Shown: positions 47,301 to 64,000 of the stretch, in pieces
Layout: each line of letters begins with the position of its first letter
Position numbering within the stretch: the first letter of the stretch is position 1
Assembly: GCA_965215265.1 (NCBI GenBank)
Contig: OZ244048.1
Span: forward strand, 1,696,001-1,760,000
Direction of reading: 5' to 3'
Length of the DNA stretch: 64,000 bases
Origin: Candidatus Poribacteria bacterium
GTDB lineage: Bacteria; Poribacteria; WGA-4E; WGA-3G
The notes under the pieces: generated by a model
What the model saw: only the letters and a program-made list of their open reading frames with translations
The model's database searches: none
Told to the model about the DNA's origin: nothing
Position numbers and translations under genes: made by a program

Positions 47301-47997
47301 AGAGTTCGCGATAGAACTGTCTGTTTAGTTCTTGAATATCCAGTGTTTTTGTCCAGGCGCGATGCAGTTCAACAAAGTTGCTAAAACCGTGCACTCTGAA
47401 TAATTCCTCGCACGACAGTTCAAACAGAATTTTGATGTGAGCCGGATGCGGTGCTTGGAAGTCGATATCCTTAATCAGCGTTACCTTTTCGAGTACATCT
47501 TTGGTGCCATCGCGTTTATGTAAACGCCGGTTGATGACGGCGAAGGTTAAGGTTTGTCCGTGCTGGAAGATTATCATAGCGGGCATCGGGGTGAGTTTGT
47601 TGATTTCGCGGGTGATGTTGGCGAGCTGTGTACGGGTGTAAGTGTTTGCCTGTAGCTTCAGCGCAAAGAATAGGTAGGACTCAATAATGGTGTTATCAAT
47701 TTGTTGATTGTTGAAGGGGAGGCGTTTTTGAGTGCTTCCGGAGATTTCTTCTGCTGTCAGTTGGAACAGTAAATCGATTGATTCCCATTCATTTACGAGT
47801 GCCCGTTCCTTGTTGAGTTTACCAAACAGATCGAAATTGGAAATAAACGCTTCGGCGAGATTAGATTCAAAATCCACGGTTATTTCGCTTTGGTAGCCGA
47901 GTGTGTTAAGCAGGTTTCTGGCATTCCTGACTAGGGAGTGGTGGGGAAAATCTTTTAGTGCTTGTTCAATGTTTTTCATCGCGTGCAGTCTGTTCAT
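44386..47997 (-). CDS. Type IIG-like (Eco57I/TaqI-C) N6-adenine DNA methyltransferase / RM protein
   Basis: GSFYTP, DPACGSGAF, NPPY and a C-terminal TRD. ATG 47997 overlaps the helicase stop (ATGA). Confidence 0.9.
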   Translation of the reverse strand: MNRLHAMKNIEQALKDFPHHSLVRNARNLLNTLGYQSEITVDFESNLAEAFISNFDLFGKLNKERALVNEWESIDLLFQLTAEEISGSTQKRLPFNNQQIDNTIIESYLFFALKLQANTYTRTQLANITREINKLTPMPAMIIFQHGQTLTFAVINRRLHKRDGTKDVLEKVTLIKDIDFQAPHPAHIKILFELSCEELFRVHGFSNFVELHRAWTKTLDIQELNRQFYRELSHWYFWAVENVTFPYDAGADSGIRNATSVIRLITRLIFAWFIKEKRLVPDTLFTQREIEKILVNTEPQESTYYKAILQNLFFATLNQEMNTPEKPTNRKFRGDGRQHYNITSLYRYKSYFNDADEALRLFEQIPFLNGGLFECLDKKVKGESKNVLRVDGFSDRDDNPLSVPNFLFFSEEKNVDLNKFYDTKGKRYKVSGLIEILHRYKFTITENTPIEEEIALDPELLGKVFENLLAAYNPETGVTARKQTGSFYTPREIVDYMVNESLVAYLKTELETQQTTMSDSETSDIEKRLRHLIAYNDAPHQFNDEETTQLIRAIDTLKILDPACGSGAFPMGVLHKLVFILAKLDPRNDRWRQRQIARVENTIKAAEAIDDSTVRENTIRDLEGEINNINEAFERNELDYGRKLFLIENCIYGVDIQPVAAQIAKLRCFISLIVDQKIDDTLENRGVRPLPNLETKFVSANALLGITGQLSLRTPEIIKKEKELEAVRRRHFTARTPRTKTRYRERDAVLRAEIGKLLNVLGLPSSTAQEIAAWDPYDQNASADFFDPEWMFGLAEGFNITIGNPPYVRADAEGLQTLRQQIRDSNQYETLYGKWDLYIPFIERSYKLLKPGGFTTLIVSDAYCHAKYAQKSHDWFLKNSRILRLDFLSNLQIFDAAVKNLIYLFQRTDGNRHQPNRRVHALEFGDVTSLPTNEQRSLTSRVFFPEDTGAEQFSIQTVTLDKICYITTGMSVHAHSRRARGAFKEKDVVSDTRDELHPKPFVEGKHLGRWIPVTHKWLEWGTERAPSLFNSVNFPELYEVDENILAPRNPGPDPKACYDDQNLIFTANSIGFILWHHLAGVRNKSIKQRTRYQDETPQRSDLPQREELEKTSRRFSVKFLLGVMNSNFAHNFLRANRRSNISLYPDDWKQLPVPDVSPQQQVPIVTLVDEILSAKRADLNADVSVLEDKLDRGVAALYGIIAE

Positions 47998-50900
47998 TGA
48001 ATCACCAGCCATGTAATAAGTTCAAAATCAGTTGTATTGCTAACCTGTTTTTGTTGCTTTAGCATCTTACCGCTGCGGCTTGATAAGAGGTTGCCGATGG
48101 CACGTTTTTGGTAGGTGCGCGTGATTGAGTTAACAGCTTTCTGGAGGAGGGCGTTGTAGTGCGTCATATTTTCTCCGTTGTGGGTGTGTTTGTCAAACAG
48201 GGTGCACAACTCTTCATACGGCTGCTTGACTCCTGCACAGAGTTGTCGGTACATCTCAAATATCTGTTTGGGTTGTGCAAAAGTAAAGCGTACGATGCCG
48301 TCGTCGCGAATGTAGACAAGAAAGTAGGGTTGCAAGGGGTTTATCTGTTCATTTCCGGTTGAATCACCTTTTTGACGCAAACAGAAAATGACACCTTTGG
48401 TTATGGTTTGATAATCGGGATGTGATGGTACAACGGCATAAAGTCCGAAAGGTGCATCTTCAAGGCGCTTGCGGTTGCTTTGAATATAATTCACCAAGTC
48501 GATACGGAATTCATCTAGGTTAAATTCATTGAGTACGACGTTTTCGCTGAAATCTTCGAGGTCTAGGACTTCATCTTTGAGTTTTAGTAGTTGCCGGTCT
48601 CGGTATTTGAGTTCATCTGTGAGGTGTTCCTGAATATTTTCTGGTTGTAGGAGGTTGTCGCCCTGGGTTGCGGCGATATCCACGAGTGCCATTCGTGCCT
48701 CGACGCGATTTTTGAGTTTGATGTAGCGGTTGAGGTCTGGTGTCGGCCAAAAGTTGACAAGTTTGACGTTGCGATTGATACTACCGATGCGGTCTATTCT
48801 GCCGAAGCGTTGAATGATACGGACTGGGTTCCAGTGAATGTCGTAGTTAATGAGATAATCACAGTCTTGCAAGTTTTGGCCTTCGGAAATGCAGTCTGTG
48901 CCAATCAAGAGGTCAATTTCGGCATCTTGTGGCATAGAATCTATCGCGGCGCGTTTTCTGGATTCTGGAGAGAAATTGGTTAGGATATGTTCAAATTTGC
49001 TACGGCCGAAAGTTGTTTTATTCCCGCTTGTGCCTCCGGATACCATTGCGGTATGAATTCCGAATTCTTCGGATGCCCATTGCTGTAAAGCGTCGTAAAG
49101 ATAGGTGGCTGTATCCGCAAAAGCGGTAAAGATTAATACTTTACGATTTGGGTTGCCGTTCCGGTCAGTGGTAGGATTTTTTACCTTTTCAGCAATTAAT
49201 TCCTGGAGTTTGGCGAGTTTTGCATCACGTTCAGGCGTAATGTCCTTTGCGTAAATATAAGGCAGCTCAAGTTGCTCCTGGTCACGGTTCAGGTCTGCTA
49301 ACCACCTTTCGACGTCAAGGTGTGCCATTTTGAAGACCAGTTTTTTCCCTACCTGCATCGCTGCTTGTAACTCTTCGTCGTCAAGTTCCTCAATTTGAAT
49401 CTCTTCCAGGCTAAGTTCAGAATTTTCATCTTGGAATTTTTGGAACCGTTCGATGCGTTTTTTTAGATCGTCAAGTTTTGCGATGGTTCGTTCCAACGTA
49501 ATAGCAAAGGAGTGGACGGAACTTTCCAAGCGTTTAAGAAAGTTCACCTTCATCATGCCGATTAGGTAGTATTCCCGGTCGGTTTGTTTGAAATTTTTAA
49601 TCTGTCCCAAATCATATTCGTCATAATATTCGGGCAGAATATATTTTGAAGGGTTGAATAGAGAAAGTTGGTAGTTGGAAATTTCTTCGTTTAATTCGTC
49701 GTAAGATAGGAACTGACGTTTCAGATCAATCTCGGAGTAGACAGAAACGGGCTTGGTTCGTTTGGGGAATCCGCCTAGTTTTTTTAGCGATTCGGGATAG
49801 TATTTTTCAATATGTTTTCGCGAACGCGCAATAGTCAATTCATCGAGCAGTATGAAAAAAGCGGAGCTGAGTTTTTCCAATAAATCTCGGGTGTGCCGTC
49901 TCTCTTTCTCTTTTGTCCAGTGTGTGAAAGTTCTTTGTGCATCTGCGAGCGTACTTTTCAGGCTATCGATACTTAACGATTCTCGAAAAGCATCATCTTG
50001 GTTTGCGGTAAGAAAAGAGATTTGATTCCGTAGTTCTTTCAAATCATTGTTGACAGGCGTTGCGGAAAGCAGCAGCACCTTGGTTTTGATACCGTTCTGG
50101 ATAATATCTTCCATTAATCGCTGGTATCGGCTTTTGCTAATCAAGTTTCCGTCTTCGTCCCGTTTGCCCTGTGTATTGTTTCGAAAGTTGTGTGACTCGT
50201 CAATAACAACCAAGTCATAGTTTCCCCAATTGAGGGTTTCGAGATTAATGTTTCCGGAGTATCCACTATCCCGGCTGAGGTCTGTGTGGGATAGGACTGC
50301 GTATCTAAATCCGTCTTTGAGGAACAGGTTGAGCTCACTATTATTTTCTGCTTGATAAATCGTCCAATTGTCCCGGAGTTTTTTGGGGCATAACACCAGT
50401 ACGTTCTGGTTGCGCAATTCAAAGTACTTGATGATTGCGAGAGCCTCAAAGGTTTTGCCGAGGCCGACACTATCAGCGATGATACAACCGTTGTGTCGAA
50501 GGATTTTGTTAATTGCGCCTTTTACTCCATCCTTTTGAAATTCAAACAGGTAATTCCAGATGTGTGTATCAGTGAGCTGCACATCCTCTGTGAGGAGTCC
50601 ATCTTTTTCTTGCTGTTCTAGGAATTGCCCAAAAATGTGATAAAGCGTTTTATAATAAATGAACTCCGGGGCGTGGTTTTGATAGAGTTGTTCGAGGTAT
50701 GATAAGACTTCCGCTTTAACATCCTCTACAAGTTCGTCGTTATCCCAGATGGTATCGAACCACATTTTGAGTGCGTGCCGGTCTCGGTTGCTGTCCACCT
50801 CCAAATTGAGTTCGATGTTATTGGCGTTTGAGCTGATTCCGAGTCCGCGTACGGTAAAATTGGAGCTACCGACTATTGCCTCCTCCACCCCGTTATTAGA

Positions 50901-51296
50901 GATATAGTACATCTTGCCGTGCATCAAATTAGAGTTTTGAATTGAGCGGATGTGAACCTTTTCTCGAATCCAGTCTGCGCATGCTTTTGCAATCCAATTC
51001 TGTTTTAACCGGTCGTCAAATTCTAAGCCTTCGTCCTCAATCTTAAACGCTTTTTTGTTGCTGGAGGCTGAATCGATCTGTTTGATAAAACGCGGTTCAC
51101 CGTACAGGAACCGGAGTTCTTTAATGTCTGTGAGTTGTGTTCTGAGTGCCTGAAAAGCATAAATTGTGAAGTATGCGGAGACAATAGAGAGGGATGTTCC
51201 GTCTTCTATTTTGGATTTCAGAAAATCCCCAACGTTTCTCGCGCAGAAGTTATCTAGGATTCCGGATTCTTGGAAAGATGAGTTATGACTTGCCAT
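47994..51296 (-). CDS. PLD-nuclease / SNF2-like helicase fusion
   Basis: HGK...GSSN (PLD), ADSVGLGKT, DESH, SATP, SEGQNLQ, QRFGRIDR. Confidence 0.9.
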   Translation of the reverse strand: MASHNSSFQESGILDNFCARNVGDFLKSKIEDGTSLSIVSAYFTIYAFQALRTQLTDIKELRFLYGEPRFIKQIDSASSNKKAFKIEDEGLEFDDRLKQNWIAKACADWIREKVHIRSIQNSNLMHGKMYYISNNGVEEAIVGSSNFTVRGLGISSNANNIELNLEVDSNRDRHALKMWFDTIWDNDELVEDVKAEVLSYLEQLYQNHAPEFIYYKTLYHIFGQFLEQQEKDGLLTEDVQLTDTHIWNYLFEFQKDGVKGAINKILRHNGCIIADSVGLGKTFEALAIIKYFELRNQNVLVLCPKKLRDNWTIYQAENNSELNLFLKDGFRYAVLSHTDLSRDSGYSGNINLETLNWGNYDLVVIDESHNFRNNTQGKRDEDGNLISKSRYQRLMEDIIQNGIKTKVLLLSATPVNNDLKELRNQISFLTANQDDAFRESLSIDSLKSTLADAQRTFTHWTKEKERRHTRDLLEKLSSAFFILLDELTIARSRKHIEKYYPESLKKLGGFPKRTKPVSVYSEIDLKRQFLSYDELNEEISNYQLSLFNPSKYILPEYYDEYDLGQIKNFKQTDREYYLIGMMKVNFLKRLESSVHSFAITLERTIAKLDDLKKRIERFQKFQDENSELSLEEIQIEELDDEELQAAMQVGKKLVFKMAHLDVERWLADLNRDQEQLELPYIYAKDITPERDAKLAKLQELIAEKVKNPTTDRNGNPNRKVLIFTAFADTATYLYDALQQWASEEFGIHTAMVSGGTSGNKTTFGRSKFEHILTNFSPESRKRAAIDSMPQDAEIDLLIGTDCISEGQNLQDCDYLINYDIHWNPVRIIQRFGRIDRIGSINRNVKLVNFWPTPDLNRYIKLKNRVEARMALVDIAATQGDNLLQPENIQEHLTDELKYRDRQLLKLKDEVLDLEDFSENVVLNEFNLDEFRIDLVNYIQSNRKRLEDAPFGLYAVVPSHPDYQTITKGVIFCLRQKGDSTGNEQINPLQPYFLVYIRDDGIVRFTFAQPKQIFEMYRQLCAGVKQPYEELCTLFDKHTHNGENMTHYNALLQKAVNSITRTYQKRAIGNLLSSRSGKMLKQQKQVSNTTDFELITWLVIQ

Positions 51297-57213: not shown

Positions 57214-59298
57214 ATGAGAGCAAGTCACTTATCGGTTGGATATGTTACGGTGATTGTGTTAGTGGTGTTACATCTGCTGCCGGTCTGGGGTTTCAAGTAT
57301 TTTCCGACTCAAGATGGGGCGAGTCATATTTATAACGCCTATGTGCTGAAGGAGTACCACAAGCACGAAAACTACCGGTTACGGGAAGTTTATGAACTAA
57401 ATCCGACCTTCTTCCCGAATTGGACCTCGCATGCGCTGCTAGTCGTACTGCTGTATGTCTTCCCCCCGCTTGTCTGCGAAAAGATAGTGCTGACTCTCTG
57501 TATTGGGCTTCTACCGTTTGCACTCTTCTATTTTCTCAAGGGTGTTCAGAAGAGGAACCTGGTTTTTGGTCTTCTTGGGTTTATGTATGCTTACAACTAC
57601 CTGCTTCACATGGGTTTCTACAATTTTGTTCTCAGCATGTCTCTGTTTTTCTTCACTCTTGGCTATTGGTGGAGAGTTAAAGATAAGCTGCGGGTGGCAA
57701 ACATTGTGTGGCTCTATCTCTTATTGTTGGCGACTTACTTCACGCACTACCACTCCTATGCGCTGCTTCTTGTATCGCTGACGTTCTTCGCACTCTTTTC
57801 ATCGGTTTTCGATGTGCTGTACGGTGTATGGGGTTCTAAGGAAACATCACAGCCGCTGATGCATCGCTTCAAGGCGGGCGTGACAAAGCTCAAACCGGCG
57901 TTGACTTTCCTCGGTACGCTTGTGCCTGCGTACTTTATTTTGTTCTCCTACTATCTCTACCTTGCGGATAGCCATGGCGGTGATAGTAGTCATAAAGGCT
58001 TTGAATGGCTGATGGACTATTTCTTTGGTATGAAATCGCTTGTCGCGTTTCGGGATGAGCACGTGTTGATTGGGCGGTTGCTGCTTGTATTTTTTGCGGT
58101 TGCCTTCTTGCTCACAGTGATTCACCGGATTCGGGATTACTATCAAATAGAATCGGAGCGAGGTGGTGTGCGTCTCTGGGTGTGCGTTGTGCGCCCAATG
58201 GATGGGTTTCTGATTATGGCAGTGCTCACCACCGTGATGTATTTTATAGCCCCGTGGTCTGGTTACAGCGGGGGTTGGATAAATGATCGGTTTCATTTAT
58301 ATATCTTCATGATGTTGCTTCCGTTCTTTGCGGTTAATCTGCATCGTTACATAAACTATGGAGTAGCAGGGGTCATCATTGCGCTATCCTTGTGGCATCT
58401 CGGTTACAATGTTCACACCTACGCATTACTGAATAGAGACATAGCGAATGCTCTGACATCGGACGGTCTGTATAAGAGAGATACGATTCTCACGAGTGAA
58501 CCGGGGGAATGGGGTGGGTTCTCGGATTCGCTCGGTTTTGAGCCGAAGTACGTTGAGCCGTTCGGGCATATTGAGTGTCTGCTCGCGTTAAAAATGGGTA
58601 TAGGCTATCTTGACAACTATGAGGCGGATACCGACCATTTTCCGCTGCGCTACAAGCAAAAAGAACTTCCAGCTGACTTTGCGATTATATGGCGGACAGA
58701 ATATGACGATGTCGCGGGTTTAGAGCAAGAGTATGAGCTTATCCATTCCAATGACTATAACCGCCTCTATCGTCGTAGGCGTGCAGCACCGAACCTTGAA
58801 ATGTGGGGCGGGCGGACCGCCATCACATTTGATATGCAACCGGATGATGGAGAGCTCGCAACAGGGCACATCGCTGTGTCTGCAGATACGGTTTACACCG
58901 ACGGTGGATACGGTTGGCTGGTCGAATCAGAACGAGATGACTTTATAGGTGATGCGGCAGTTGAACAGCCTTATCAGGATAGTATCCTTGGAAAAGCAGA
59001 TGGTGTGTTTAGAGTAGCACTGCCCAATGGTACATATAAAGTAACCGTCCATTTGAGTGCTGTGGAATCAGAACCGCTGGAGCTCAATCTTATTGCGAAC
59101 CGGGCGCAGCAGATTAAGCGGCTGCGGCTTCCTATTGGAAACGAGAGGGTTGATAGGCATTACACTATCACGATTAGCGATGAACATCTAACCCAGGTGA
59201 TATATACCCGCGGGAAAGGCGAGTATAAACGTTGGGGTTGGTGTGGGTTTACTGTTCAATCCATCGATGGCGGGCCGCGCTTGCGTATTCCGGAATAA
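57214..59298 (+). CDS. Polytopic membrane protein (GT-C-like) with a C-terminal beta-sandwich domain
   Basis: Multiple transmembrane segments, PTQDGASH, MGFYNF; C-terminal LPNGTYKV. Confidence 0.7.
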   Translation: MRASHLSVGYVTVIVLVVLHLLPVWGFKYFPTQDGASHIYNAYVLKEYHKHENYRLREVYELNPTFFPNWTSHALLVVLLYVFPPLVCEKIVLTLCIGLLPFALFYFLKGVQKRNLVFGLLGFMYAYNYLLHMGFYNFVLSMSLFFFTLGYWWRVKDKLRVANIVWLYLLLLATYFTHYHSYALLLVSLTFFALFSSVFDVLYGVWGSKETSQPLMHRFKAGVTKLKPALTFLGTLVPAYFILFSYYLYLADSHGGDSSHKGFEWLMDYFFGMKSLVAFRDEHVLIGRLLLVFFAVAFLLTVIHRIRDYYQIESERGGVRLWVCVVRPMDGFLIMAVLTTVMYFIAPWSGYSGGWINDRFHLYIFMMLLPFFAVNLHRYINYGVAGVIIALSLWHLGYNVHTYALLNRDIANALTSDGLYKRDTILTSEPGEWGGFSDSLGFEPKYVEPFGHIECLLALKMGIGYLDNYEADTDHFPLRYKQKELPADFAIIWRTEYDDVAGLEQEYELIHSNDYNRLYRRRRAAPNLEMWGGRTAITFDMQPDDGELATGHIAVSADTVYTDGGYGWLVESERDDFIGDAAVEQPYQDSILGKADGVFRVALPNGTYKVTVHLSAVESEPLELNLIANRAQQIKRLRLPIGNERVDRHYTITISDEHLTQVIYTRGKGEYKRWGWCGFTVQSIDGGPRLRIPE

Positions 59299-59373
59299 AC
59301 CGAGAAACGTTAGCATTGTATCGTGGGCTGGTAAACCGGGGTGTCGGCGATTGCGGCGAGAAACACCGTGATT

Positions 59374-59677
59374 GGATGTATCTGGTGCGGTAGTTTGCCT
59401 CATCTATCTGCTTAGGCGCTTCACTTCTGATAATAAAGTATAGCAGCCTCTCTATTATTTTGTCAAGACAACCTTCACGTTTTGCCTCGCAGGGCGGCCT
59501 CGGTGCTTCTCTGAAAGCAAAAAAAACCAGGGGCAGCCATATGAGGGTGGCTGCCCCTGGTTTAGGTTAGTTTAGTTTAGTTTAACTTAGCATTCACAGC
59601 GTTTATTCTTCCGATTTGAGCGTTGCCCAGCGTTCTGTGAGTTTTCCGTCTGCACTCAGATACCCTCTCAACCGCGT
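59374..59677 (-). repeat. ~300-bp direct repeat, copy 1: tail, terminator, promoter and rpn 5' stub (MRQTTAPDTS)
   Basis: Colinear with 60902-61200; terminator 59519-59563; promoter 59437-59466. Confidence 0.92.
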
Positions 59678-59683
59678 CTTCTG

Positions 59684-60931
59684 CTACGTGTCGGTGTGGT
59701 TGTCAGCTGCCTCCAGCTGCCGCACGAGTTCCGCGCGCACCTCCGCAGATAAATTCTGAATCTCCGCCGGCGACAAACTCTGAAATGCCTTGACGCGCTC
59801 CTCGGGACTCAGGCGTGCCAACATATCGGCCCGTTCTGCCGCGGGTAGACTCGCTAACATATCGGCCCGGTCTGCCGCAGATAACCTTGCTAACATGTCC
59901 GCACGTTCTGCGGCGGGTAAACTCGCCAACATATCGGCCCGGTCTGCCGCAGATAACCTTGCTAACATGTCCGCACGTTCTGCGGCGGGTAAACTCGCCA
60001 ACATATCGGCCCGGTCTGCCGCAGATAACCTTGCTAACATGTCCGCACGTTCTGCGGCGGGTAAACTCGCCAACATATCGGCCCGGTCTGCCGCAGATAA
60101 CCTTGCTAACATGTCCGCCCGGTCTTCAGCAGGCAGCCGTGCGAGCAGATCCGCCCGGTCTTGAGGACTCAAGCGGGCGAGCATGTCCGCACGCTCCTCC
60201 GATGTCAGCGCCGACAGCAGCTTCGGACCTAAAGTCGTCGCAACTTCGCGAAGACGACTCTGAAAGAAATCTTGACGGCCTTCCATTTCACAAACCTCCT
60301 CCGTGACTTCCGGCTGCAAATACAACGCGGAGTCAAAATATAACGTATTCTCTTCTGTTATCACCCGCCGCAGGAACGCACGAAACTGTTTCTGCGACGA
60401 CGCAAACAGCAGCAACCAATAATTCGGCTCAACCAGTGCCACTTCATTGCAAACCAACAGATGCACCGGCACGCCATCCATCAACCGATAATGCCCCGCC
60501 GCCAACGGCTCCCACGGCTCCCCAAAAGGTGGGCGGGAGAGCAGCGCCCGCGGCTTCCGAGACGATACTATCGTCAGGGTTAACTCGGTTGCAGGCACCT
60601 GCTTATCTGCCAGATAACCACGCGCACGCATACAAATCCGGTGATACGCCGATTCATTCAACGGGTCGTTTTGTCCTTTGAATTCAAACAGATTATGCGT
60701 GCGTAAGTAAGAGAGCAGCGGGTTGGCACGCACTCTCGCGCGGGCTGCGGCGCTTTCGAGGAGAGCGAGTGCATCTATACGCTGCGGCAACCGGTTCACT
60801 TCTATCTCTGTCTGGATAGAGGCACCCAGCCCAGAGAAGGGTAGGGCGAGGAACTCTTTGAAGAAAGGGTCCCAGAGTTTCCGTTTGCTTTGTGTTTCTT
60901 TAGATGTCTCCGGCACTGTCGTTTGCCTCAT
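59684..60931 (-). CDS. Rpn-like PD-(D/E)xK nuclease (copy 3) with expanded 12/24-aa repeats; internal start at 60286
   Basis: Close paralogue of 37027..38121; 72-bp repeats; GGAGGAGGT-N7-ATG in frame. Confidence 0.75.
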   Translation of the reverse strand: MRQTTVPETSKETQSKRKLWDPFFKEFLALPFSGLGASIQTEIEVNRLPQRIDALALLESAAARARVRANPLLSYLRTHNLFEFKGQNDPLNESAYHRICMRARGYLADKQVPATELTLTIVSSRKPRALLSRPPFGEPWEPLAAGHYRLMDGVPVHLLVCNEVALVEPNYWLLLFASSQKQFRAFLRRVITEENTLYFDSALYLQPEVTEEVCEMEGRQDFFQSRLREVATTLGPKLLSALTSEERADMLARLSPQDRADLLARLPAEDRADMLARLSAADRADMLASLPAAERADMLARLSAADRADMLASLPAAERADMLARLSAADRADMLASLPAAERADMLARLSAADRADMLASLPAAERADMLARLSPEERVKAFQSLSPAEIQNLSAEVRAELVRQLEAADNHTDT

Positions 60932-61200
60932 CTATCTGCTTAGACGCTCCACTTCTCATAATAAAGTATAGCAGCCTTTCTGCTTTTTTGTCAAGGCCGT
61001 CTCCAGATTTGGCTTCTCAAGGTGGCCTCGGTGCTTCTCTCTATCCAAAGCAAAAAAATAGGGGCAACCACTTGTGAGGGTGGCTGCCCCTGGTTTGGGT
61101 TAGGTGAGTTTAGCATTCACAGCGTTTATTCTTCCGATTTGAGCGTTGCCCAGCGTTCTGTGAGTTTCCCATCTGCACTCAGATGCCCTTTCAAGCGGGT
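60902..61200 (-). repeat. ~300-bp direct repeat, copy 2 (includes the 3' end of 61126..63828)
   Basis: Terminator 61052-61091; promoter 60965-60994. Confidence 0.92.
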
Positions 61201-63828
61201 TGTCTGCAGCGTCTGCTGCACACCTGCGTTGGAGACATCTTCAATGCGGTAGTAATACACCACATTCGGTTTGGCAGACGTATCCGTCCAACTATAGTCG
61301 TTGCGTTCGCCAGTGGTGCCGGCCCCTGCAATCAACTCGGAGTTTATCTTTGTGAAGGTGCCGTTGCGCGCATCGCTCCGCAGCAGGTTGAATCCTGCGT
61401 TGTTCAACTCGGATTCGGTTGCCCAACTGATGACGATAGCGCCTTCTACGCGTTTCGCGGTGAAGGCAGAGAGCGCCACGGGCAGCGGGCCGCCGCCCCG
61501 ATAGCCGGGAGTGCCTTCATCCTCGGCATTGCCGTAGAAGGTGTCGCGCTGCGCCTCGTTCAAAGAGGTGTTGGCGGCTAGCACCCAACCCGCTTCGGTG
61601 GTGCCGTCTTCGGCAACTGCGCCGGTGGCGCGGCTAGCGCTGCCGTAGCGGCGGATGATGGAGCTGCGCCCGTCTTCAAGCATTGGCAGCTCCCACGCAG
61701 GTTCTTCCCCTCGCCCGACATAGTTGCCAACCGTATCCACCACGGGCTTGACACCAGAGGCTTCTTTGCCATATAACGTCAACTTGAAGGCGGTGGTGGC
61801 TAGCACCGGCGAACGCCGTTCCAAGTCCAGTTTATCGCGATAAGCACTCTCACGCCGCAGGTTGATGACACGTGCATCAGGGAAGTGGCCAGAGGTGCGC
61901 CCGGTGTCTGTCACGATGAGCAGCGTCTGGTTCGGGGGGATTATCTTACCGCCTACGAATTTGAGCGTCACATCTGGGCGAACGGCGGTGTCGGTGGTGG
62001 CATCTTGTTGGATGCGGAGCGTCCAGTCGTTCAGATTCACCGCTTCGGTTAGAGAACTATTGTGCAGCTCTATCCACTGCGGCAGCCGGTTGTCTGTGTC
62101 GAACATAATCTCGCTGATGGAGACTTGGCCCGCGGCGGATTTATCTTTCACTACACCGTTCTGATACCCGGGGGTACCGCCATACGCGTCTGCGTTCGGG
62201 GTATCGCGATCCCAGCCTATGCCGGTGAAACCGCGTTTGCTCCACGCGTTTTCCGCGAAGTTGTTCTCATTGTCGCGCTGATACACTGACCCTTCCTTGA
62301 ACGCCTCATCTATATCCTTAAAGATGTCCTTGTCGGGATCCGGTGTCGCCTGCAGTGGCCAAACCTCCGTATTGTAGTTCTGAGAATCATGCGTCCCTAC
62401 AAACGGAACGAAAACAGCACCTGCCGCATCTTCTATGTGAATCGGCTTATTCTCTTTATCTTTCCCATTCCGCAGCAGCAACAAGAACTTACCGTCTGCG
62501 GGAAGGTTGAGGCCGGATACAACTACGTATTGGTGCGTCGCACCATGCTGCACCTCATCCGCATCGTCCACACCCAGATTGTTCCCACCAGCGAGAAAGT
62601 TTCCTTCGGGATTGCTGTTCGCAACGAGTAACACACCCCCGCCGGCAATACTCTTATCAGGCAGCGTCACAAGCACCTTCTCGGTGCGCGCAGACGCATC
62701 GCCTGTCACAAGCGTGAGCTCCCACTCTTTGATACTGACGGCGGCATCCGTGTCGTTTCGCAGCTCTATCCAATCTAGGCTGTCAGACGTGTGATTCCCT
62801 ACTTCGTTGATGACAATCTTTCGACCTTCGAAACTCGTCCGGTCTCCGGCGGCGATACGCTGAGACGGGGTCGAACCAGGGGTGCCGATACGCTGCCCAC
62901 CGAGGTTTATGCTCGGCGCAGAGGACGCTTGCCAGTTATCGGAACGGTTACCGTCTTCGACTTCAGCCTTGGCAAAATCTATGCTCCTATACATCGAAAC
63001 CAGAGACGCAGACGCGGCTTCATCAGTTGCCACGGTGCGCCCACCTCCACCGGGCACCTCCCAGTAGCCCAGCCCTAGATTGCTTATGCTATCTATCACC
63101 AGATACGGAGTCTCTCCTATTGTCACTTCCGCACGATTCACCAGGTCGCCTGTCGTAAAATACAACGCCCAATCGTCCGCTACGGCAGTGGCGGCAACCG
63201 CTTTTACTGCATACAGCTCTAGCCACTGGCCAGACGACGACGGCGTTTGACTCGCATCTTCGCCCCACAACACTTCACTTATGACCACATCACCTTTCGC
63301 GGCACCGCCGGTGGTTAGCTTCGGCGCTATCAATTCTATCGTCCCACCATTACGGAAAAATTCGCTCAAGTTACGAGTCAGGGTTTCTACAGGTGCAACA
63401 GCACTGGAGATACCATGCGTTGTGGATGAGCTTCCCTCTTGGGTCAATACCTCAAAACCGCCCGCTGCCAACGCTGAAAGCGTGAAGTAGTCCAATTTCG
63501 CGTCAGGGCGAAGTATCGTCAAGTCGTCTAACGCTGACAACTCATCGGGGATATCCGATACTTGCGTTCCCCGGAGATCCAGCTCTTCCAAGTTCGTGAG
63601 GCTTGACAACGCAGAGATATCCTCTACTGGCGTATTACTGATATCCAACTTTTTCAAGGTGGTGAGAGTTGCCAGAGACGAGACATCCTCTACTTCCGTT
63701 CCAGAGAGATCCAGCTCTTCCAAGCTCGTGAGGGCTGAATGCGCTGCGAAAGGCAACGCTATTACAAGGCCGGCTAATAATACAACAATGCACAACGGCA
63801 TTTTTTTTCCTAATGCTTTCGAATACAT
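61126..63828 (-). CDS. Secreted LRR and lamin-tail-domain surface protein with KLTERWATLK tail
   Basis: Signal peptide; LRRs; three ISEV/INEV/ISEI...WxEL modules; PLPVALSAF...WATESELNNAGFN. Confidence 0.85.
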   Translation of the reverse strand: MYSKALGKKMPLCIVVLLAGLVIALPFAAHSALTSLEELDLSGTEVEDVSSLATLTTLKKLDISNTPVEDISALSSLTNLEELDLRGTQVSDIPDELSALDDLTILRPDAKLDYFTLSALAAGGFEVLTQEGSSSTTHGISSAVAPVETLTRNLSEFFRNGGTIELIAPKLTTGGAAKGDVVISEVLWGEDASQTPSSSGQWLELYAVKAVAATAVADDWALYFTTGDLVNRAEVTIGETPYLVIDSISNLGLGYWEVPGGGGRTVATDEAASASLVSMYRSIDFAKAEVEDGNRSDNWQASSAPSINLGGQRIGTPGSTPSQRIAAGDRTSFEGRKIVINEVGNHTSDSLDWIELRNDTDAAVSIKEWELTLVTGDASARTEKVLVTLPDKSIAGGGVLLVANSNPEGNFLAGGNNLGVDDADEVQHGATHQYVVVSGLNLPADGKFLLLLRNGKDKENKPIHIEDAAGAVFVPFVGTHDSQNYNTEVWPLQATPDPDKDIFKDIDEAFKEGSVYQRDNENNFAENAWSKRGFTGIGWDRDTPNADAYGGTPGYQNGVVKDKSAAGQVSISEIMFDTDNRLPQWIELHNSSLTEAVNLNDWTLRIQQDATTDTAVRPDVTLKFVGGKIIPPNQTLLIVTDTGRTSGHFPDARVINLRRESAYRDKLDLERRSPVLATTAFKLTLYGKEASGVKPVVDTVGNYVGRGEEPAWELPMLEDGRSSIIRRYGSASRATGAVAEDGTTEAGWVLAANTSLNEAQRDTFYGNAEDEGTPGYRGGGPLPVALSAFTAKRVEGAIVISWATESELNNAGFNLLRSDARNGTFTKINSELIAGAGTTGERNDYSWTDTSAKPNVVYYYRIEDVSNAGVQQTLQTTRLKGHLSADGKLTERWATLKSEE

Positions 63829-63848: not shown

Positions 63849-64000
63849 TTAATTTGTTGATGACAGCGCTGAAATATCCGACACTTCCGTATCACTAAGA
63901 TCCAGCACTTTCAAGTTGGTTAGGTCTGACAGAGGTGTGATATCCTCTACTGGCGTTCCCGAGAGATCCAGCTCTTCCAAGTTCGTGAGGCTTGACAGCG
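63849..64000 (-). CDS. 3' end of an LRR protein (partial)
   Basis: Manual translation LSSLTNLEELDLSGTPVEDITPLSDLTNLKVLDLSDTEVSDISALSSTN*; shares DNA repeats with 63575-63735. Confidence 0.8.
   Translation of the reverse strand, partial: LSSLTNLEELDLSGTPVEDITPLSDLTNLKVLDLSDTEVSDISALSSTN

Follow-up and report, generated by a model that had tools for sequence, protein, structure and literature searches.

The question raised by this locus is how a nuclease gene came to lie between two direct repeats, each made up of surface-gene tail DNA, a terminator-like hairpin, a promoter-like site and the first codons of the nuclease gene. The window, a stretch of 64,000 nt analysed as a whole, is G000:C1:1696001-1760000; its source genome, G000, is that of a Candidatus Poribacteria bacterium and consists of one contig of 4.83 Mb. 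The answer that we favour, with moderate confidence, is a founder insertion behind a surface gene, after which the joined unit was copied to about 20 sites and reshuffled.

A sequence-only reading had described ~300-bp direct repeats around the cassette and the order tail, terminator, promoter, nuclease, tail, terminator, promoter and stub. The two repeats aligned at 81% over 320 columns (E 1e-83) and each part was found in its place (Table 1). The surface gene ended in TRLKGHLSADGKLTERWATLKSEE and a stop codon, and the last 130 residues of its product were identical across the four intact genomic copies. Secretion of this protein is suggested by its signal-like N-terminus and its domains. Homology past the nuclease stub stopped at about position 59372. 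Direct repeats of at least 60 nt flanked 12 of the 17 nuclease copies in the genome (600-nt flanks); around random ORFs, for which 1500-nt flanks were used, they were present in 14 of 200. At all family loci, the interval from tail stop to terminator contained variable TAAAC/TAACC pentamer runs (61093-61113 and 59564-59590 in the window). Elsewhere in the window, at 47994-51296, an ORF of 1100 aa was helicase-like with a nuclease-like N-terminus; judged by motifs only, it is possibly a defence gene.

Table 1. Parts of the compound locus and its flanks, in window positions.
Feature	Position	Strand	Remark
Upstream LRR-ending gene, predicted secreted, 3′ end	63849..64000	-	continues beyond window; gene 1 of compound locus
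Surface gene, 900 aa, LRR and lamin-tail-domain, predicted secreted	61126..63828	-	KLTERWATLKSEE tail at end
Direct repeat copy 1	60900..61215	-	tail DNA, hairpin, promoter-like site, nuclease codons 1-10
Terminator-like hairpin and U-run	61091-61060	-	repeat copy 1
Promoter-like site TTGACA-18-TATACT	60994-60965	-	11/12
Rpn-like gene, 415 aa	59684..60931	-	PD-(D/E)XK nuclease domain and repeat-rich C-terminal part
Internal Shine-Dalgarno GGAGGAGG and ATG (M216)	60284..60302	-	predicted start of 200-aa small protein, a putative antitoxin
36-nt (12-aa) repeat array	59744..60211	-	C-terminal part of nuclease gene
Direct repeat copy 2	59372..59690	-	tail remnant, hairpin, promoter-like site, nuclease stub
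Second tail frame, QKTRLRGYLSADGKLTERWATLKSEE and stop	59683-59603	-	untranslated remnant; first base directly after nuclease stop
Second hairpin	59563-59524	-	repeat copy 2
Second promoter-like site	59466-59437	-	repeat copy 2
Ten-codon nuclease stub MRQTTAPDTS	from 59403	-	8/10 residues match ORF start
Flanking host gene	57214..59298	+	downstream of cassette

An assembly artefact was considered and is unlikely. Contigs of run X5, from another study, ran from unique flank into the window's stub, and the junctions of another family locus, H, were found in runs X7 and X8, from two other studies. The presence of locus H in two strains from other studies further indicates that the spread predates those strains. 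Contigs from other samples ended within the repeats, runs X13 and X14 gave sparse cover and the whole cassette was spanned by no listed contig, so its exact order at the window locus rests on the assembly.

The label 'Rpn-like', given on first reading, held for fold and architecture but not for family membership. Residues 1-235 of the nuclease protein had no Pfam or NCBIfam match, and the whole protein was not matched by the Rpn models of these databases (PF04754, TIGR01784). A structure model built from 74 sequences reached a pLDDT of 93. Its best structural matches were NucS (Z 10.0, rmsd 2.8 over 102 residues), AF1548 (Z 9.8) and McrC (Z 8.1), which predicts a PD-(D/E)XK fold. Among the homologues, D21, D53 and E83 were conserved and K85 was invariant; the catalytic motifs were intact in all 17 genomic copies, for which pN/pS was 0.29. 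The catalytic set of RpnA is given as D11, D63, E82 and Q84 in the portion of the report consulted (PMC5350276). This set was not found in the window protein, in which the last catalytic residue is K85, as against ExQ in all seven Rpn-type rows compared. According to hhalign, the probability of a match to alignments of three and of seven Rpn-type sequences was below 2%. Together with the residues unlike those of RpnA, this result places the protein outside the Rpn family. Seven of the 74 homologues matched Rpn models weakly; four such matches were located, all in the C-terminal part. The genome itself contains 26 TIGR01784 matches, none of which is a copy of the window nuclease.

The homologues carried Poribacteria labels. 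Among atlas neighbours of the protein, DUF4351 (25% of members) and HTH_Rpn_C (10%) recurred, a lead only. Matches to MgtE_N and FliG were set aside as products of the helical repeats. PADLOC held no relevant model for the nuclease, the sequences of solved structures gave no useful match, and no relatives were found among metagenome contigs, viral contigs or plasmids.

A second start within the nuclease gene is predicted. M216 was invariant in 22 of 22 homologues, and a GGAGGAGG or GGAGGAGA ribosome site preceded the internal ATG in all 17 copies; the ribosome site of the main start was weak and distant. Among 15 homologous genes from the 16 loci given, the codons of the internal site were GAG in 15/15 and AAG for 13 of 14 lysines versus a background of ~30%, a count taken over kin that are not independent. 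The predicted small C-terminal protein spans 92-238 aa across the 17 copies, as the number of 12-aa repeats varies. It may be separately translated and act as an antitoxin. With the PD-(D/E)XK fold, the conserved internal ribosome site makes it likely that the nuclease gene works like Rpn toxin-antitoxin genes. A complex of the long and small proteins, folded without alignments, scored 0.10.

Stand-alone versions of the small ORF occurred behind paralogues in G000 and in another genome, G004. Just outside the window, a distant nuclease paralogue (46% aa; G000:C1 1763823-1762080, locus L001) is followed by two tandem stand-alone small ORFs, each starting at the internal Met behind a ribosome site, which resemble E. 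coli ypaA/rpnE-S. Similar duplicates were seen at G000:C1 near 4102446-4104858 and 3425460. Stand-alone copies of this kind have been described for rpnE and rpnC in the consulted portion of Zhong et al. 2023 (10.1101/2023.05.02.539157). On L001:6671-9338, the summed contig depth of run X6 reached 580-1950 across the surface gene, its 3′ end included, versus 3-22 on the unique flanks; this depth was far above that in three other runs and is a measure of neither copy number nor expression. Four near-identical loci, at G000:C1 437312, 1720339, 4202031 and 4366229, join the nuclease promoter to a 67-nt C-terminal piece. They were rejected as orphan antitoxin genes, as they have no start codon and are relics within arrays of another repeat.

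The window cassette proved to be one member of a dispersed family. The genome contained 17 close full-length copies of the nuclease gene (84-100% aa identity), three stubs and ten distant paralogues. Family copies occupied about 20 compound loci with leaders in common, in the order leader, surface gene, terminator, promoter, nuclease, surface-gene remnant and terminator. The surface genes comprised several N-terminal types, LRRs, an optional lamin-tail part and the tail. Upstream of the 17 copies lay an intact tail (4), an LRR-ending gene with a clipped tail (8), an internal fragment (2) or another nuclease gene (3). After the nuclease stop, five copies had a long, decayed last domain of the surface gene, one a medium-length remnant, eight the same stop-to-tail junction and three none; this junction occurred at ten places in all. 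An association of nuclease copies with a surface-gene end, as first proposed from the window, was thus borne out in 14 of 17, which have such an end behind them. The graded series of remnants and the common breakpoints point to one origin followed by deletion.

These loci did not resemble those of a conventional mobile element. Their ends were ragged on both sides, without the fixed ends of an IS element or transposon. No inverted repeat was found at the unit ends inside the window, and no recombinase within the loci mapped. Locus H had a possible 10-nt overlap at the insertion. Pieces upstream of several loci derived from a three-copy sequence (G000:C1 17131-17726, 340549-341153 and 1557905-1558501), and other loci carried upstream the end of a gene that we take, from its C-terminal motif, to be MutL-like.

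Matching sites were examined in a sister species, G001, the only other member of the genus, represented by one contig that is 95% complete and about 78% identical to G000. The comparison took in 17 of the 20 loci, with D, G and the downstream flank of E outside it. The nuclease had no match in G001. Between the flank matches, no element DNA was present at any of the 17 sites, the whole unit being absent with its surface gene. At locus Q, the unit interrupts a small gene whose G001 counterpart is whole; ~7 nt were replaced there and nothing was duplicated. This interruption shows a gain in the G000 lineage. Since G001 is only about 78% identical, most junctions could not be read to the base.

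Eight of the 17 G001 sites were collinear. Of the 18 flanks of the nine other sites, ten paired directly, in the expected orientation and across gaps of 27 nt to 2.1 kb, with a flank from the other side of a different family locus; four paired via one more swap and four were unpaired. A rough estimate puts chance pairing near 5% a flank. In G001, the gene downstream of the window cassette lies ~130 nt from the upstream-flank gene of locus N (G000 3459000), which places the window locus at a flank swap. The two genomes also differ at many further breakpoints, with 24 jumps counted in 243 kb that had been chosen at breakpoints and so form a biased sample. Flank DNA was also carried between loci: locus B held 104 nt (99%) of the upstream flank of locus N and ~570 nt (97-98%) of its downstream flank.

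The copies were also mosaic. Among 96 informative sites in the 17 nuclease genes, incompatibility was 0.11 for sites less than 20 nt apart and rose to 0.61 for those more than 300 nt apart, and none of 1000 permutations was as low at short range. Over the terminator-promoter segment, the two window repeats were 83.5% alike, whereas repeat 1 was 99.5% alike to locus P and repeat 2 was 95.3% alike to locus H. As each is closer to copies at other loci than to its partner, a fresh local duplication was rejected as the source of the two repeats and the window locus is a recombinant. The partners were nearest neighbours in none of the four tandem pairs. These pairs, at three other loci and, truncated, in the window, uphold the view that the unit amplifies through its repeats. 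Locus R, in which a single terminator leads into 123 nt of the downstream flank of locus A (98%), has the structure expected of a crossover between terminators; its upstream gene differs from that of A and only the downstream flank is in common. This cassette-less locus goes part of the way towards the contrast between empty and filled sites that the sequence-only reading had called for, but no cassette-empty allele was found at an orthologous site.

These observations can be accommodated as follows. A promoter and Rpn-like nuclease gene would have inserted once behind a surface-protein gene and, in doing so, duplicated a long stretch of that gene's 3′ end. The joined surface gene-nuclease unit would then have been copied to about 20 chromosomal sites by illegitimate, break-repair-like copying. 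Recombination among the copies would account for the mosaicism of the repeats, for their tandem arrays and for the exchange of chromosome flanks, with RecA-type unequal crossover between tail-terminator-promoter repeats yielding the tandem arrays, stubs and cassette-less loci. We infer the single founder event, the unequal crossover and the break-repair-like copying from the arrangement of the present loci. Duplication of the host-gene end by the founder insertion, which was part of the original proposal, is retained as the best reading. The nuclease would be carried along as a passenger and retained through addiction or phage defence; it is treated as a likely passenger since surface genes and nucleases each spread without the other. 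G001 has seven dispersed surface genes without a nuclease, some at sites empty in G000 and two at swapped flanks; its surface paralogues end in the tail without a cassette, at sites other than those of G000. Another genome, G002, has dozens of dispersed surface genes and no nuclease match.

The nucleases, too, have spread on their own. The window family was present in 26 of 121 genomes and was also expanded in G114 (20 matches) and G119 (18). A second Rpn-like family in G000, recognized by its 26 weak TIGR01784 matches, occupies ~23 loci in two subtypes, with tandem arrays and its own promoter (e.g. G000:C1 3218155-3221800, 4143936-4146500 and 1421523-1424100). It had no match in G001 and no surface-gene tail DNA in its immediate flanks. 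In all, G000 has about 50 Rpn-like genes (27 full-length genes of the window family and the 26 weak matches), versus none found in G001.

This last difference tells against a passenger, as it fits a driving nuclease equally well. The nuclease could be the motor: its cuts would trigger break-and-copy repair, by which the nuclease locus and the surface gene are pasted into new sites, as a mobile element without a transposase. The expansions in G114 and G119, the ragged ends, small target deletions and flank carry-over, and the catalytic residues intact in every copy agree with such a role, and E. coli Rpn proteins increase RecA-independent recombination according to the portion of the report consulted (PMC5350276). 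Yet G001 and G002 have dispersed surface genes but no nuclease match, other repeat families have spread in G000 too, and Zhong et al. (10.1101/2023.05.02.539157) saw no evidence that Rpn genes transpose autonomously. We therefore consider a driving nuclease unlikely. Equally doubtful is the fuller picture that it would imply, in which a transposase-free element built on a DNA-cutting nuclease is copied by break repair with surface-gene cargo, is retained by a built-in antitoxin, and has copies that serve as hubs shuffling surface proteins and rearranging the chromosome of a sponge-type symbiont.

Insertion could be dispensed with if the whole surface gene-nuclease unit had been duplicated in tandem and most of the second surface gene then deleted, leaving the tail remnant. 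Tandem surface genes are present in G001, rpn arrays are reported to arise from tandem duplication in the portion of Zhong et al. consulted (10.1101/2023.05.02.539157), and repeat 2 of the window has a promoter and stub, like a second unit. Homologues linked to argJ in other Poribacteria bear on the matter. Three of six are bracketed by partial argJ duplicates, and relatives have argJ either before or after the nuclease, as tandem duplication would allow. However, a large deletion ending ~30-55 nt past the nuclease stop would be required, with similar deletions in the three argJ cases, whereas a long target duplication explains all four in one step each. This makes tandem duplication improbable, even though present loci cannot tell a founder insertion from whole-unit duplication and decay. 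The bracketed homologues are at L008:1060-2648, L077:3882-5010 and L079:3969-4914, with the partial argJ duplicate on the far side; at L077, the gene directly upstream is, in addition, a tail-bearing surface gene. A gene-derived flanking duplicate was present at 3 of 22 homologous loci elsewhere (L098 has short repeats), which is no higher than the background of 25/200 for any repeat in G000.

The original proposal had gone further, to a lineage-wide tail motif that serves as a reusable attachment site. The motif was matched by 116 ORFs in the genome, of which 16 belong to the compound-locus family. The other 100, all in G000:C1 and 92 of them at least 100 aa long, end in a motif of the type VEP.GKLTTTWA.IK, which may be a sorting signal and for which we found no description in the literature searched. 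No nuclease start lay within 1 kb of any of these 100 ORFs, whose tail DNA was 44% identical on average; this speaks against the motif as an attachment site; target genes had no common attachment core, so the generic tail was also rejected as an attB. Repeated integration of a tail-terminator-promoter-nuclease circle into resident tail-coding DNA, restoring gene ends, would explain why the cassette follows all four intact surface genes, and a family member lacking the cassette, such as R or M, would acquire this structure by homologous integration, but the proposal is very improbable given the 100 unused tails, the 13 of 17 copies that are not behind an intact tail, the lack of a resident surface gene at the sister-species sites, the junction common to ten places and the origin of the two window repeats from different sub-lineages.

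A founder insertion followed by copying of the unit has partial precedents. Restriction-modification genes insert with long target duplications and amplify via the repeats, as described in the portion of Furuta et al. 2010 consulted (PMC2853133). As there, long direct repeats of host DNA (more than 30 bp) lie on both sides of the window nuclease gene, the unit has no mobile-element genes and amplification is repeat-mediated. Unlike that case, as far as the portion consulted describes it, a single gene is involved here with no methylase, the duplicate is decayed and common to many loci, the unit reaching new sites includes the host gene, and there was no duplication at the one base-resolved site.

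The likeness to Rpn/YhgA-like genes (COG5464, PF04754, TIGR01784), whose tandem arrays and variable ends are described in the portion of Zhong et al. consulted (10.1101/2023.05.02.539157), extends to the PD-(D/E)XK domain, the predicted internal start, variable repeat number, stand-alone small-ORF duplicates, ragged ends, the lack of terminal inverted repeats and patchy copy number. The differences are that the Rpn models missed the window protein, which has ExK instead of ExQ and repeats of 12 aa instead of 4, and that the nuclease is fused into a dispersed surface-gene unit marking chromosome rearrangements.

Dispersed families of surface-protein paralogues shuffled via conserved ends are represented by Helicobacter bab/hop and Mycoplasma MgPar. 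The present family resembles these in its mosaic variable N-termini, homogenised 3′ ends and between-locus recombination; it differs in that its copies have reached new, formerly unoccupied sites together with a putative addiction module. We found no account of a compound surface gene-nuclease unit in the literature searched, with subscription journals outside its scope.

Overall, the window unit is a variation on the known behaviour of nuclease cassettes, and its genomic record is unusually complete. Although rpn genes are annotated as transposases, Zhong et al. (10.1101/2023.05.02.539157) did not find autonomous transposition. G000 offers a dense record of rpn-type spread: ~20 insertions, one of them base-resolved inside a gene, a near-empty sister species, flank carry-over and ordered flank swaps. 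The gene-within-gene antitoxin design, as predicted here, would extend to a nuclease family missed by Rpn models. LRR surface proteins have been discussed as host-interaction factors in Poribacteria, in the portion of that report consulted (PMC3909097), and the present data link this nuclease family to the diversification of LRR surface proteins.
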